A DNA stretch of 64,000 bases from an uncultured Spirochaetota bacterium. GTDB taxonomy: Bacteria > Spirochaetota > Spirochaetia > SZUA-6 > Fen-1364. Where the stretch lies: NCBI GenBank assembly GCA_963781885.1, contig CAWAHW010000001.1, forward strand, positions 224,001 to 288,000. Direction: 5' to 3'. The notes beneath the pieces were generated by a model. That model saw nothing but the letters and a program-made list of their open reading frames with translations. It was not told the origin of the DNA and did not search any database. Shown here in pieces: positions 53,893 through 58,426 of the stretch. Position 1 is the first letter of the stretch. Each line of letters opens with the position of its first letter. Made by a program: the position numbers and the translations under genes.

Positions 53893-54051
53893 TCAGCACC
53901 CCTTGTGCATGCGCCGCGGCCCGCCGCGGATGCCATGCTTCCATAATTGTAGTAAGGGCCCGCGGAAACTGTCAAGCGCGGTGGACCAGGGCATGGGCGG
54001 GCACAAGCGTAGGCGCGGCGCGTCCAGTTGTCAACAACGGGCGCTTCTCGG

Positions 54052-55704
54052 CAGCAATTCGCATTATGGCCAAAGACGTTTGGTTGGCATGAGGGAATCT
54101 ATGGCGTATATGCGCCCAGGTGGGAATCCGGGATTAGGACTTTGGTGGAGGAGAAAGTTTGAATGGAGGTCCGCCGGAGTTGTGAGGCGCGGAAGGGGAC
54201 TTACAGCAAGCACCCGTCCAAGGTTGGCCACGCAGGAGGGAGGGTGGTTCTGTAGGGGTGTTATGAAGGCAGGCAGGATCGGTGAACTATCCGTCTGGGT
54301 CAGGCAGGTGCAGCCCATTCACCATGAACTGCATCAGAGCCACCCAACTGTCAAAGCACAGATACTGGGTCAGTGTGGCAACGTGTTGAAAAAAGGTATC
54401 CCGACGCGGCAGTGTCGAGCGAAGCAGGGCACAGCGGCTATCCATGAGCTGTAAAAGGGTGTGAAAAAGAAAGGCAATCACATTCAGCGATAGCAGTGTC
54501 TGCGACAGATACTGCTGGCCATGGCCGAAATTGTGCTCGAAGTGGTATCCCTTCGTCTTCAGTGTGTTGAAGTTCTCGTTCTCAACCTTCCAGCGGCATC
54601 GACCCGCGTTCACCACCTCCACCACCGTCTGTTCGCTGATGGGGTGGCTGGTGACCCAGCAGTTGCGATAAGTGACCTTGCCCTTGTCGTCGAGAATCTG
54701 CAATTCCACCCATGAGACCACCGGGCTATCCTTCTCGGCGGTCAGGCTGACATCGTTGATCCAGCGGTAGTGGTAGTGACGGTGATCCTTACCTGTCCAG
54801 GCGCTGCGTTGCAGGGTGTGCACCCCGCCCAGTTTCTCCAAGCCCTCAATCTCCTCAAACAAGTGCTTGTGCATGACCGGCTTGGCAACAAAGATGAAAT
54901 CCAGCTCCTGCTGCACGGCGCGAGTGATGATGGGGGTTCGCGAATACAGGTCATCTCCCAGCAGCGTCACTCCTAAGGGGCTCAATCGCGCAGCGTAGCG
55001 CTCGATCCAGCGCAGGGCCGCTTGAAACTCGCAGTCCTGCCGATCATGGCCATCCTGGGGACTGAGAAACTCCGGCTGCAGCGCCACCACATGGGCCTGT
55101 TGGGGACTGACCACCGCGGGAAGCAGCACGGAGTGTGTGTAGGTGACTCGTCCGTCACGGTGATTGCTTACCATGCAGGAGGGACAGTGGATGGATTCCG
55201 ACAGGAAATACCCTGTGCCGTCCAAGGCCACCAGAAGCGAGTTGGCAAAGGACCTCATCGGTTGCATAAGCCCGCGCTGCTGCATCAGATCAAAACACTT
55301 CTCGTAGACTGCATTCAACAGTGAGGGATCCACGGGGTCCAACAAGGCTCTGATCTGGTTGTCCGAGGGAATCTGCTGGACCCCAAAAAGGCTCCGTGCG
55401 TTGTTCTTACCCTGCTGTTGCTGCATCAACTCTTGGAAGGCCAGAAAGGAGGGACTCTGACAGAAGAACACTCCGAAAGCCCCGCGCGTCACATCTTCAA
55501 GGGAGAACTGCGTATTCTTGCCCGTTCGTCGATCTGGAAACCTCTCGACGCATCCCATGAGAAGGGACATCAGGGCCTCAAACGTCTCCCCTCCTGACAT
55601 TCTGAGGGCAAGTGTACGGCATGCAACTCATAGCGAATACTAGACGGGCGTTCCCGGTAATCTACGGCATTGCGTCCCGTACAGACCCATAGTTAGAATT
55701 GCTG
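54052..55704 (-). mobile_element. Complete ISNCY-type insertion sequence (1653 bp)
   Basis: 18-bp terminal IRs CAGCAATTCgcAtTATGG / CAGCAATTCtaAcTATGG (15/18); 9-bp direct repeats GCTTCTCGG at 54043-54051 and 55705-55713; lower GC than the flanks. Confidence 0.9.
54287..55600 (-). CDS. ISNCY family DDE transposase
   Basis: QSPSFL, IPSDNQIR, ALDGT, GDDLY, GRCRWKVENENFNTLKTKGYHFEHNFGHG. Confidence 0.92.
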   Translation of the reverse strand: MSGGETFEALMSLLMGCVERFPDRRTGKNTQFSLEDVTRGAFGVFFCQSPSFLAFQELMQQQQGKNNARSLFGVQQIPSDNQIRALLDPVDPSLLNAVYEKCFDLMQQRGLMQPMRSFANSLLVALDGTGYFLSESIHCPSCMVSNHRDGRVTYTHSVLLPAVVSPQQAHVVALQPEFLSPQDGHDRQDCEFQAALRWIERYAARLSPLGVTLLGDDLYSRTPIITRAVQQELDFIFVAKPVMHKHLFEEIEGLEKLGGVHTLQRSAWTGKDHRHYHYRWINDVSLTAEKDSPVVSWVELQILDDKGKVTYRNCWVTSHPISEQTVVEVVNAGRCRWKVENENFNTLKTKGYHFEHNFGHGQQYLSQTLLSLNVIAFLFHTLLQLMDSRCALLRSTLPRRDTFFQHVATLTQYLCFDSWVALMQFMVNGLHLPDPDG

Positions 55705-55819
55705 GCTTCTCGGGCAGCAGTTCTGATATGATGTGCCCCCGTCAAGCTCTAAAAGCCTCCTTTTTTCTTTAGAACTCCTTCTGAACATCGAGGCCAACCC
55801 GAAGAGATGGAGAAGGGCA

Positions 55820-55955
55820 TAACCGACGATCGACCAGTCTGATATGCGTGGATTGGTTACCGCAGGCCAATGTGATCGTCAGGAGCTTGCCTCCGTCTCA
55901 TTACCAGGATCAGACCATAGTCTGCCTGCAGAACCGCTCGAGGATTCTCCGTTCG
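55820..55955 (-). ncRNA. Candidate bridge/seek RNA of the IS110/IS1111 element
   Basis: Two stem-enclosed internal loops carrying target-matching (AGCGGUUCU, AAUGAGA) and donor-matching (CACAUUGGCCU partial, CAUAUCAGAC) segments; transcript ends are unknown. Confidence 0.75.
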
Positions 55956-56007
55956 CCACGAACCTTCCCCATCCGTCCCGGTTGCCTCGATTGCATACGC
56001 AGCCTCC

Positions 56008-57102
56008 TCAAGCCACCCGATCAACCATCGCGCCCCACAGGAACCCCGAGAGCTCTCGCGCCACCGCCGTCACCACGGTCTGAGAAGCTTTGCCGCGAAA
56101 AAGCAGACGCAGAAATTTCTTGTTTAGCCGCCTGCACGCACGGTTGGCATAGCTGACCAAGGATGGAGAAAGACCCTCGCGTCGTTTCATCAACCGAGTG
56201 CTACTGGGATGGTAGCTGCGGTATTGCCAGGCGGCCTCCACCAGAAGTTTGCGCAGGTGGGAATTACCCGCCTTTGTGATTCCTCCCAAGCGCCTCTTGT
56301 TTCCGCTGGATCGCTCGGAGGGCACCAACCCCAAAAACGCCATGAATTGATCCGCACCTGCAAAGCGCCGAAAGTCCCCGATCTCCGAAACAAGCGACAA
56401 GGCGATCAGCGTCTCCACGCCCTTGAACGCCTTCAGCTTGGCTACAGGTTCGGCATAGCTTTTACGTGCCGCGATCTCTTCGATGCCCGCCTTGATCCGC
56501 CGACACTTCTCCTCCAGCTCGTCGACTTGGCAGCGGTACTCGGTGAGAGTCAACTGCTCCAGCGGATCCTCCAACTCAAGAGCCTGCAACCATGCTCGAT
56601 GCGGCTGCGTCCATGTGGCTCCTTGTTCATAACGTATCCGCCTCCGCAGAAGAAAACCCAGCACGCGCTGCTTGGCCTTGCGCAGATCGGACTTCATGTC
56701 CTCCAGCATTCGTAGATAGTCGCGAACCGCTTCGTCTTCCCGCGTGGGTACATGAACGGCACTCACATCCCCGCTCCGAAGTGCGCGAGCAAGCATCACA
56801 GCGTCCCTTCTATCGGTCTTTATGCGATCTCCCGGACGATGTGGAATCTGAGACGGAGCCAGCACCGCACACGGCACACCCAGTTCCGTCAATTGTCGAT
56901 ACAGGGAATACCCTAGACATCCCGCCTCGTAGCATGTCACCAGGTCCCCCGCGGACTGGAGCTTCTTGAAATAGGCCTGGATTACGCTCTTTTCATTGCG
57001 AATCACCGTCTCGGCCCTCGGCTTCTGATCGCGCCCGCTCAGGATCGCTATGGCGATCTTTTCTTTGTCGACGTCCATGCCAACGTAATGTACAATACCC
57101 AT
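56008..57102 (-). CDS. IS110 family DEDD recombinase/transposase
   Basis: GMDVDK, CYEAG, KTDRRD (DEDD); FLGLVPSERSSG catalytic Ser; GITKAGN; AVAREL. Confidence 0.96.
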   Translation of the reverse strand: MGIVHYVGMDVDKEKIAIAILSGRDQKPRAETVIRNEKSVIQAYFKKLQSAGDLVTCYEAGCLGYSLYRQLTELGVPCAVLAPSQIPHRPGDRIKTDRRDAVMLARALRSGDVSAVHVPTREDEAVRDYLRMLEDMKSDLRKAKQRVLGFLLRRRIRYEQGATWTQPHRAWLQALELEDPLEQLTLTEYRCQVDELEEKCRRIKAGIEEIAARKSYAEPVAKLKAFKGVETLIALSLVSEIGDFRRFAGADQFMAFLGLVPSERSSGNKRRLGGITKAGNSHLRKLLVEAAWQYRSYHPSSTRLMKRREGLSPSLVSYANRACRRLNKKFLRLLFRGKASQTVVTAVARELSGFLWGAMVDRVA

Positions 57103-57350
57103 GACTGCCCCCTTGTGCGTTGTTTGTGGCGTGCCGCATCGAGACGCCAATCTCATGATACGGCCGATCCACGTTGTAGCAACCACCTGGGGGCACTTCA
57201 TATTGTCTCATTTTGGACCATCCGGAGCTGACGACCGGGCATTTTTGCTCAAAAATGGCTTATTACCATAGGACAAAATGAGAACTGCATCGTTCGGTTG
57301 CCAAACTGAGAATTGCTGGCTTCTCGGGGGCATCGTGTATACTTGGTTCC

Positions 57351-57836
57351 GTGAAACCGAAAAGGATGGACCCGCGGCGCACGAAGCTGGAGAAGGAGCT
57401 GCGCGACGCGGTCAAGGAAGTCGACGAGCAGGGGCTGCTCTTCCTGCTCCGCCAGGCCCAGGTGCTCATCCACAACGCGCGCGTGGAGCAGGTTGCCGCA
57501 CGGACGGAAAAGAACGCACCGGCGGGAAAGGCCGTCCGGACAAAGCCGGACAGGGCACAGAAACCCGTGTCCATCGAAGACGCCAAGGACGGAAAGGCCA
57601 TCTTCCTCAACCTTGGGAAGGCGCGCAGCGTCCTCACCCCTGAGGAGATGAAGAGGATCGTGCGGATCTGCTACGCGGCGGAGACCAAGAGCGAGGCGCT
57701 GCGCCGGCTCTTCACCGTGCTCGCCCGGGAGAGAAAGGACATCCTCGCCGATGCTTTTGTCGGAAACCCCGACAATCCGCTCCTGGAAGAGCTGTTTCGC
57801 GTCGTGCGCGCCACCTATCACCTGAAGGACCGGTAG
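57351..57836 (+). CDS. Hypothetical protein
   Basis: 161-aa ORF with typical GC3-rich codon usage. Confidence 0.75.
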   Translation: MKPKRMDPRRTKLEKELRDAVKEVDEQGLLFLLRQAQVLIHNARVEQVAARTEKNAPAGKAVRTKPDRAQKPVSIEDAKDGKAIFLNLGKARSVLTPEEMKRIVRICYAAETKSEALRRLFTVLARERKDILADAFVGNPDNPLLEELFRVVRATYHLKDR

Positions 57837-57880
57837 GCGCGCTTGCATCGTGCGGGCTTTCCTTTTATCGTACACCCATC

Positions 57881-58426
57881 GTGACCGGCACGGATGGGGC
57901 GGGCAAGTATTTCCTCTCCTACGAGCATATTCACCTGAGCGTGCGGGCGCTCGCCGCGAAAATCACCGCCTCCGGTTTCGATCCCGACCTTATCGTGGCA
58001 ATCGGAACCGGCGGATTCATCCCGGCGCGAATTCTTAAAACCTATATCAAGAAGCCCATTCTCACCGTGGGCATTTCCTATTACGGACCCGACAATCTGC
58101 CGGCAAAAAGCCCCCGCACGATACAGTGGATCGACGAGGTGGAGAAGAAGCTCGCGGGCAAAAACGTGCTCCTTGTCGACGAGGTGGACGATTCCCGCGT
58201 CACGCTGGAATACTGCCTGCGCGAGCTTCTCCTGCACCGGCCCGCGGAGATCGCGGTCGCGGTGCTCCACAACAAGAAAAAGGAAAAGAAGGGCAGGATA
58301 CCCGCCGAGGTCCGCCGCTACTTTGCCGGCGAGGAGCTCGACGACAGGTGGATCTGCTACCCCTGGGACGCGACGGACATCACGGCGCACGAGAAGATAT
58401 CCCGGTCCGGCATCGTGCAGTCGTAG
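57881..58426 (+). CDS. Purine (xanthine/hypoxanthine-guanine) phosphoribosyltransferase family
   Basis: VAIGTGGFIPARIL, LLVDEVDDSRVTL PRPP loop, WICYPWD. Confidence 0.9.
   Translation: MTGTDGAGKYFLSYEHIHLSVRALAAKITASGFDPDLIVAIGTGGFIPARILKTYIKKPILTVGISYYGPDNLPAKSPRTIQWIDEVEKKLAGKNVLLVDEVDDSRVTLEYCLRELLLHRPAEIAVAVLHNKKKEKKGRIPAEVRRYFAGEELDDRWICYPWDATDITAHEKISRSGIVQS

Follow-up and report, generated by a model that had tools for sequence, protein, structure and literature searches.

The insertion sequences (ISs) IS4321 and IS5075 are said to target the inverted repeats that belong to transposons of the Tn21 family, a habit that Partridge and Hall reportedly described in 2003. Here, we describe a 1484-bp IS of the IS110 superfamily that sits in a comparable place. 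It occupies positions 55725-57208 (minus strand) of a 64,000-nucleotide stretch of DNA from an uncultured Spirochaetota bacterium, hereafter the window, and it splits the terminal inverted repeat of a miniature inverted-repeat transposable element (MITE). Very probably, it is a recently active IS1111-type IS whose own bridge/seekRNA steers insertion into the MITE end repeat. This interpretation draws on the observed specificity for site and orientation, the structure of the RNA, the covariation of guides with flanks and the architecture of the element ends. Like IS4321 and IS5075, the element has a DEDD transposase, subterminal repeats limited by ATG...CAT and terminal extensions of 7 nt and 3 nt, a layout that was checked in a copy of IS5075. 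Like them, it lies in one orientation at a fixed position within another transposon's terminal repeat. Their hosts are Tn3-family transposons on enterobacterial plasmids, whereas here an environmental spirochaete provides them, namely an IS4-like IS and its MITEs.

IS1111 of Coxiella burnetii provides another parallel. In strain RSA 493, 20 of 21 copies lie at one place in QMITE2 (PMC5896051). The likeness is that IS1111-family copies sit nearly all at one MITE position. However, the Coxiella site is described as a REP-like (repetitive extragenic palindromic) palindrome inside the MITE, whereas the present element sits in the terminal inverted repeat itself, at a distance of 10 bp from the tip. 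An earlier note, written from the window's sequence, had presented transposon ends of the present kind as a target class not yet described. Given the Coxiella case and what is said of IS4321 and IS5075, that claim falls short.

The mechanism and architecture of RNA-guided IS110/IS1111 elements were described in 2024 (PMC11208160; PMC11187229), and the present locus is a well-supported example of that mechanism, not a new kind of system. The seekRNAs of ISEc11, ISPa11, ISKpn4 and ISPst6 (Siddiquee et al. 2024, PMC11187229) likewise lie downstream of tnp, place the top-strand complement first with an overlap at the crossover, and have been reprogrammed naturally among relatives. However, those seekRNAs co-purify experimentally with the transposase and are required, whereas the RNA here is predicted; they are 82-96 nt long and carry target matches, whereas here the donor loop is readable too, within a ~173-nt unit. 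The bridge RNA of IS621 (Durrant et al. 2024; Hiraizumi et al. 2024) also has two loops, target before donor, and in each of them the 5′ guide, the longer one, and the shorter 3′ guide address opposite strands and share a core dinucleotide. Unlike the RNA described here, it is placed in the left end, upstream of the gene, and its strand order relative to the gene is the reverse; the protein match to IS621 is weak (E 1e-7). In Pseudomonas putida, the REP-targeting ISPpu9 and ISPpu10 are multi-copy IS110-family elements that have a repeated target and whose transposase is followed downstream by a small RNA gene (PMC12288879). ISPpu9 is reported in the same source to have orphan copies of its RNA gene, whereas all eight matches to our covariance model, R1, in the genome of the window lie inside IS copies.

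New here are the particular element, its target family and the evidence that its clade follows this family across phyla by guide changes. A literature search found no IS110/IS1111 element aimed at the terminal repeat of an IS4-like IS or MITE, although ISfinder and supplementary files might list one. The locus offers a clean case, taken from nature, of bridge/seekRNA targeting in the IS1111 type, which is less studied; its four guide segments can all be read and checked against many natural variants. It adds to the known targets an end repeat, that of an IS4-like IS/MITE family present in several phyla. Because its relatives retarget by a 9-nt guide change alone, they form a natural reprogramming series for IS1111-type guide rules, suited to questions of guide length, of how much wobble is tolerated and of what part the 5′ donor guide plays. 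None of this alters how the mechanism is understood. The label of a candidate new programmable recombinase, given in the earlier note, applies solely in the sense that is true of every IS110/IS1111 orthologue; for genome engineering, the element is one of thousands of possible orthologues. As a whole, the earlier interpretation is largely supported, being right in substance and overstated in novelty.

Insertion site and genomic copies

At the left junction, CAGCAGTT[CT] occupies 55715-55724 (core dinucleotide in single square brackets) and is followed immediately by GATATG. At the other junction, CATATTGT[CT] occupies 57199-57208 and is followed immediately by CATTTTGG. The element boundaries are thus ambiguous by the shared dinucleotide, CT or AG according to strand. 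The MITE left inverted repeat contributes its outer 10 nt, CAGCAGTTCT (55715-55724, plus strand), which comprise the 'left target' plus the CT core. The remainder of the split MITE lies beyond the IS at 57209-57318 (plus strand), where it starts with CATTTTGG, carries an internal inverted copy, CAAAATGAGAACTGC, and closes with the right end GAGAATTGCTG. After this right end, the repeat gcttctcggg (57319-57328) matches 55705-55714. Removal of 55725-57208 had been predicted to restore the intact MITE left repeat, and all strings and coordinates given with that prediction were present in the sequence. The excision boundaries are independently confirmed because an empty MITE elsewhere in the genome (L034, G000:C1:386452) carries the restored target: an uninterrupted 18-nt target with a single CT, flanked by a 9-bp target-site duplication.

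The genome holds nine matches to the IS, of which seven are full-length, one is incompletely readable and one is truncated. The seven full-length copies show 0-2 differences in 1484 nt, counted against the copy in the window. All eight readable left flanks end in the same CAGCAGTTCT, in a single orientation. All eight readable right flanks start with CATTTTG(G/C)ACC, mostly as CATTTTGGACC with one variant, CATTTTGCACC, and again in constant orientation. Target specificity thus amounts to one sequence in one orientation with no true target duplication; the duplications that are present flank the interrupted MITEs, each of which has its own. The MITE bodies that adjoin the IS copies are 67-93% identical (mean 78%) and belong to at least two subfamilies. 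Near-identical IS copies in diverged MITE bodies therefore represent independent, recent insertions rather than one copied composite. The proposal that the guides are aimed at the MITE terminal inverted repeat agrees with these data, as all genomic copies sit there. Copies in unrelated sequence with unchanged guides were looked for, and none was present within this genome.

The truncated copy (L009, G000:C2:775982-776863) retains the right end, the RNA and ~210 C-terminal codons with one TGA, and has lost the left ~600 bp. The internal repeat of the MITE follows ~70 bp past the break, so a deletion took the left part of the IS.

Guide segments and their covariation with flanks

Four guide segments can be read in the minus-strand RNA downstream of the transposase. 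The 5′ target guide, AGCGGUUCU (DNA AGCGGTTCT; 55930-55938), is equivalent to the left target guide (LTG) of bridge RNA. It matches AGCAGTTCT, the MITE repeat plus core, at eight of nine positions, and the ninth is a G:T wobble. The 3′ target guide, AAUGAGA (55896-55902), is equivalent to the right target guide (RTG) and is the reverse complement of TCTCATT, that is, the core plus the inner MITE repeat. Read in IS orientation, AGCGGUUCU is the complement of the top strand, AGAACTGCT, and is placed 5′ of AAUGAGA, the complement of the bottom strand. IS1111-type seekRNAs are described as having the top-strand complement 5′ of the bottom-strand complement, with IS110-type seekRNAs reversed (PMC11187229). 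The CT core named previously holds as a dinucleotide; it reads CT on the plus strand of the window, and AG in the orientation of the transposase, and is common to target and element.

The donor guides address the element's own ends. The 3′ donor guide, CAUAUCAG(AC) (DNA CATATCAGAC; 55846-55837), equals the last right-end nucleotides plus the core. On the 5′ side, CACATTGGCCT is found at 55874-55864 (minus strand), and the 5′ donor guide region spans 55864-55873, with ATTG complementary to CAAT of the left end. A longer donor-left guide had been proposed here; it is the weakest of the four guides, with clear support for its ATTG/CAAT part only.

Relatives were gathered within the same order, from a prokaryote-wide set with one genome per species, and from metagenomes. 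Element ends were set without use of the guides, from the subterminal repeat, its ATG...CAT limits and the rule of 7-nt and 3-nt extensions. For the 5′ target guide, the right-flank 9-mer was scored against a 13-nt window after the CCUC helix, and non-cognate pairs were treated alike. Enough flank was available at 59 loci, 51 of them non-redundant.

The predicted covariation of guides with flanks was recovered. The 5′ target guide matched its own flank at seven or more of nine positions in 37 of 51 relatives, at eight or more in 26 and at all nine in 9, while 8.3% of the 2550 non-cognate guide-flank pairs reached 7/9. Summed own-flank matches came to 369 versus 236 ± 8.7 after permutation, and 0 of 20,000 permutations reached the observed value; the guide matches are thus beyond chance. 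Earlier, smaller subsets gave the same outcome for this guide. Covariation of the 3′ target guide is weaker but significant, with an own-flank mean of 4.78/7 versus 3.86 for other flanks and, again, a sum as high as that observed in 0 of 20,000 permutations. In six of six right-end types, which hold five distinct sequences (ATATC, ATAAC, ATCCT, ATAGA and ATATG), the 3′ donor guide is identical to the final 5 nt of the right end plus AG; L058, of the ATAAC type, fits at 6/7. For the 5′ donor guide, the first four bases are complementary to positions 4-7 of the left end in five of ten left-end types (ATTG/CAAT, CCTG/CAGG, AGGG/CCCT, ATCG/CGAT and GATG/CATC), with misfits in L048, L016, L064, the L018 group and the L058/L062 type. 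As read from these comparisons, three of the four guides appear well supported and the 5′ donor guide, the weakest, partly so.

Some loci were left out of these counts. Four (L019, L024, L025 and L077) were dropped from the genome-contig end table for an implausible element length of 1950-2140, and five (L027, L051, L067, L072 and L075) because no subterminal repeat was found or the contig end was reached. L013 was dropped for want of an ATG/CAT anchor; scored by hand, it gave 9/9. Right flanks shorter than 7 nt excluded L041, L047, L086, L087, L091, L114 and the second match in L105. In L041, the six known flank bases and the core agree with its guide.

Copies within each of two Arenicellales genomes (L052-L057 and L059-L063) differ almost only in the 8-9-nt target guide, which reads TCTATTCT or TCAAATCT, with a diverged form TTGAATCT. 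Copies that carry TCTATTCT have sites that mismatch the guide (3-6 of 9), and two of five sites match at 8/9 in copies that carry TCAAATCT. This pattern could represent natural guide turnover or a short, A/T-rich effective target. In the metagenome contig L088, the left flank ends in CATATC just before the AG core, like the tip of the right end, and the rest of the right end is absent. The 3′ target guide of L088 mismatches this left flank, which may be an off-target or donor-like site.

Structure of the predicted RNA

A non-coding RNA downstream of the transposase, with a target loop followed by a donor loop, had been proposed for this element, and comparison with relatives bears out both its place and its order. 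The predicted bridge/seekRNA spans ~173 nt at 55804-55976 (minus strand; R1 score 180 bits). It consists of two internal loops enclosed in one 11-bp outer stem, and each loop has a hairpin between its 5′ and 3′ guides. The first, target-binding loop is closed by CCUC/GAGG and GGAG/CUCC and contains the hairpin CAGG-CAGAC / GUCUG-CCUG (55905-55928, minus strand), which relatives keep with different sequences. The second, donor-binding loop (55825-55880, minus strand) is closed by GACGAUC/GAUCGUC (55880-55874 / 55831-55825) and holds the 5′ donor guide region and the 3′ donor guide, with a hairpin between them.

In an alignment of 11 closer relatives to the hand-drawn structure, 90.9% of cells pair, compared with 40-47% when the partners are slid, and 13 of 40 pairs show compensatory changes. 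The covariance model R1 was built from this alignment. Within the genome of the window, R1 has eight matches, which are all eight RNA-bearing IS copies; none lies outside IS copies. It further matches 41 places among 52 sources (the window plus 51 loci) and 35 places among 38 metagenome loci. When the 41 matches are aligned by the model, pairing extends to 89.4% of cells, with compensatory changes at 33 of 40 pairs, figures that lean towards the model because the alignment was fitted to it. RNAalifold recovered just nine pairs from a broad, 17-sequence MAFFT alignment, as the variable hairpins were misaligned. An element on a Leptospira interrogans plasmid (L079) scores 87.5 bits with R1; its ends and flank could not be convincingly assigned, and it was left uncounted.

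Recombinase and element ends

The transposase/recombinase of the DEDD type is encoded at 56008-57102 (minus strand) and has 364 amino acids from a conserved MGIVHYVGMDVDK start. The longest open reading frame begins at 57201, and the start at 57102 was placed by alignment with relatives. Its assignment to the IS110 superfamily, made earlier from the translation, is confirmed by Pfam matches to the N-terminal domain PF01548 (DEDD_Tnp_IS110, E 3.7e-13) and the C-terminal domain PF02371 (Transposase_20, E 4.8e-22). The NCBIfam model NF033542, 'IS110 family RNA-guided transposase', matches at 237 bits against a cut-off of 140. Among structures in PDB, only IS621 (chain 8wt6, E 1e-7) and ISCro4 matched. 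The C-terminal GLVPSERSSG is invariant at all but one position in four aligned relatives and fits GL-P----S(t)G, the motif described for IS1111-family transposases, which are reported to have 330-350 amino acids (PMC11187229). Identity to the transposase of the Leptospira plasmid element is 46.5%.

The left end of the IS (57189-57208, minus strand) consists of the subterminal inverted repeat ATGAAGTGCCCCC at 57189-57201 and a 7-nt extension, AGACAAT, at 57202-57208. The right end (55725-55745, minus strand) consists of a 3-nt extension, ATC, at 55725-55727, the subterminal repeat GGGGGCACATCAT at 55728-55740 and a TTGACG box at 55740-55745. The two 13-bp repeats differ by one mismatch and are limited by ATG...CAT. 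A plasmid copy of IS5075 has the identical layout, with the same asymmetric extensions of 7 nt left and 3 nt right and the same limits. IS1111-family elements are described as having perfect or nearly perfect subterminal repeats of 11-13 bp with extensions of 7 bp left and 3 bp right (PMC11187229). Judged by this end geometry, the 13-bp subterminal repeats and 7-nt/3-nt extensions would mark the element as IS1111 type. Non-coding sequence amounts to 283 nt downstream of tnp (55725-56007) and ~100 nt upstream. Because the RNA is in the right end, downstream of the gene, the element is not a member of the IS621 group and has the IS1111 arrangement.

The leader upstream of the gene (57105-57190, minus strand; ~100 nt) is conserved at the nucleotide level, for example in CGTGGATCG and CCACAAACAAC, among relatives with 60-67% protein identity. 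Such conservation may point to a separate regulatory or RNA element in the leader.

Alternative explanations

Several observations weigh against reading the locus as an RNA-guided element of the IS1111 type. Fourteen of the 51 non-redundant relatives match their own flank at fewer than seven of nine positions; seven of these come from the two Arenicellales genomes, where copies share a short A/T-rich site only, and the others are L011, L045, L066, L018, L017, L093 and L089. The covariation of the 3′ target guide is modest (4.78/7 own versus 3.86), and the 5′ donor guide of the window is imperfect, ATTGGCC in place of the expected ATTGTCT, with half of the left-end types fitting. Rfam has no family that matches window 55000-58000 (0 matches at E <= 1), and the single-sequence minimum-free-energy fold is ordinary (z -1.84 over 286 nt, +0.31 over 146 nt), although the hairpins named in the earlier note do appear in it. 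For these two reasons, the case for the RNA rests on comparison. The transposase is just ~26% identical to those of IS4321 and IS5075 (residues 1-292), and R1 gives no match in the downstream non-coding region of IS5075. The unexceptional fold and the 14 poorly matching relatives would suit a recombinase that itself recognises the repeat, with no guide RNA and with guide-like segments that are coincidental or remnants of captured targets. We consider this very improbable, since the guides change along with the flanks over 51 non-redundant loci, among proteins that are 40-67% identical, and 33 of 40 helix pairs are compensatory. RNA dependence has, moreover, been shown experimentally in other IS1111 and IS110 members (PMC11187229, PMC11208160).

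The constant insertion point would be uninformative on IS targeting had one ancient insertion created a MITE::IS composite that the DDE transposase of the MITE family then spread. Such spread would leave a flanking duplication at each interrupted MITE, as is observed, and the parent IS, full-length and with its transposase intact, is the neighbouring element. Nonetheless, this account is scarcely credible: IS copies that differ at 0-2 of 1484 nt sit in MITE bodies of 67-93% identity and at least two subfamilies, a divergence that already indicates that the MITEs diverged before the IS insertions. A left repeat split 10 bp from its tip should also be disabled as a substrate for the DDE transposase, and relatives with other guides occupy other, guide-matching sequences. 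A different question is whether the element, with the same mechanism, belongs to the IS110 group or to a separate deep branch with a downstream RNA, and is not a true IS1111 member. Its 364 amino acids exceed the 330-350 given for the IS1111 family, exceptions with a downstream non-coding region are reported within the IS110 family (PMC11187229), and the distance from IS5075 and IS4321, in protein and in the failure of R1, points the same way. This placement is unlikely in view of the ATG...CAT-limited 13-bp repeat, the 7/3 extensions, the GL-P----SG motif and the guide order of top before bottom strand, all of which are IS1111 hallmarks. An RNA-guided element of the IS1111 type thus remains the preferred reading.

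Proposed mechanism

In the proposed mechanism, the recombinase gene would be followed downstream by the ~173-nt bridge/seekRNA with its two internal loops. In the first loop, AGCGGUUCU would pair with one strand of the MITE left repeat and AAUGAGA with the other. The two pairings would overlap at the CT (AG) core, the presumed site of strand exchange. In the second loop, CAUAUCAG and, more weakly, AUUG would pair with the abutted ends of the excised circle. The recombinase-RNA complex would then insert this circle 10 bp into the MITE end, with a single orientation. Such an insertion would split the repeat needed by the MITE's own DDE transposase. From the work on IS621, ISEc11 and ISPa11, we infer production of the RNA, its binding to the recombinase and the need for it, as well as a circular intermediate with a promoter at its junction.

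The predicted circle junction has TTGACG, a 16-nt spacer and GACAAT spanning the joint, with hexamer matches of 5/6 and 4/6 as read by eye. Most relatives that were read have TTGAC immediately 5′ of the right subterminal repeat, L014 and the Arenicellales elements being without it. The TTGACG box is a candidate -35 element of a circle-junction promoter. A promoter scan of the integrated state placed no sigma-70-like site directly before the RNA, and one internal site in the left end only. The lack of a promoter directly before the RNA suggests that it may be processed from the transposase transcript.

Target family and related elements

The split MITE belongs to a family of ~120-bp elements with ends CAGCA(G/A)TTCTCA, an internal inverted copy of the left end and 9-bp target-site duplications. 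About 13 copies are present in the genome, nine occupied and four empty. Of the empty copies, L034 has the exact 18-nt target, two differ only outside the 9-nt guide footprint and one has a 1-nt deletion inside it. The family has the marks of a MITE: it is short, non-coding and multi-copy, with terminal inverted repeats, duplications and an autonomous IS with similar ends.

This full-length parent IS (~1.65 kb) lies immediately to the left in the window, at 54052-55704 (minus strand), with ends CAGCAATTCG.../...GAATTGCTG and a flanking 9-bp gcttctcgg. It encodes a 437-amino-acid IS4-like DDE transposase (54287-55600), and end repeats of its type are found at two other places in the genome. The ends had been called ISNCY-type, which the parent transposase does not bear out. 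It gives sub-threshold matches only, to DDE_Tnp_1 and DDE_Tnp_1_assoc in Pfam and to the IS4 model NF033592 in NCBIfam (16.9 bits against a cut-off of 115). No ISNCY-labelled family, and no NCBIfam family other than IS4, matched at E <= 0.01. It has >7000 homologues, mostly unnamed. The target transposon is IS4-like and unclassified.

The 9-bp gcttctcgg is present at 54043-54051, 55705-55713 and 57319-57327, which gives a layout of repeat-IS-repeat-MITE-repeat. One and the same 9-bp target seems to have served the MITE and the parent IS in succession.

Six other loci have a homologue of the parent transposase (47-59% identical) immediately next to a related IS1111-type element: L011 and its duplicate from a metagenome, L085, L040 from a Pirellulales genome, L086, L087 and L113. 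In L011 and L040, where flanks were read, the insertion is at the same repeat position, on the side of the transposase start. Six further elements (L012, L088, L090, L110, L116 and L131) sit in ends of the CAGCAGTTCT, CAGCAATTCT or CAGGAATTCT type and carry guides AGGAAUUCU, AGCAAUUCU or GGCAUUUCU. Together with the AGCGGUUCU of the window, these guide variants can be set against the three host repeats, and G:U wobble positions may let one guide cover several repeat variants. Intact repeats of the target type occur as well in the genomes of L011 and L012. L084, at 66% identity, is an exception that targets an unrelated sequence.

It is possible, and we propose it only tentatively, that this IS1111-type clade from Spirochaetota, Planctomycetota and metagenomes is a dedicated hyperparasite of one widespread, unclassified IS4-like family. 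Insertion would take place 10 bp inside the end repeat, in full-length hosts the one beside the host transposase gene, with the 9-nt guide tracking repeat variants. If so, each insertion would disable a host end, and the clade would represent a natural, RNA-guided conflict of transposon against transposon with co-evolution of guide and target.

A second subclade (58-62% identical; L013, L042, L044 and L092-L106) is always found in CATAACATAG|AG|TT(C/G/A)AG(T/C).GCC. Its guides follow the site variants and read AACTGAACT, AACTCAACT, AGCTCAACT or AGCTTAACT. As the flanks are similar beyond the site between phyla, the target is probably the end of another mobile element. One metagenome contig of this subclade, L098, carries two related IS copies next to each other, seen as R1 matches 2.3 kb apart with the guides AACTCAACC and AACTGAACT; each copy adjoins its own target variant.

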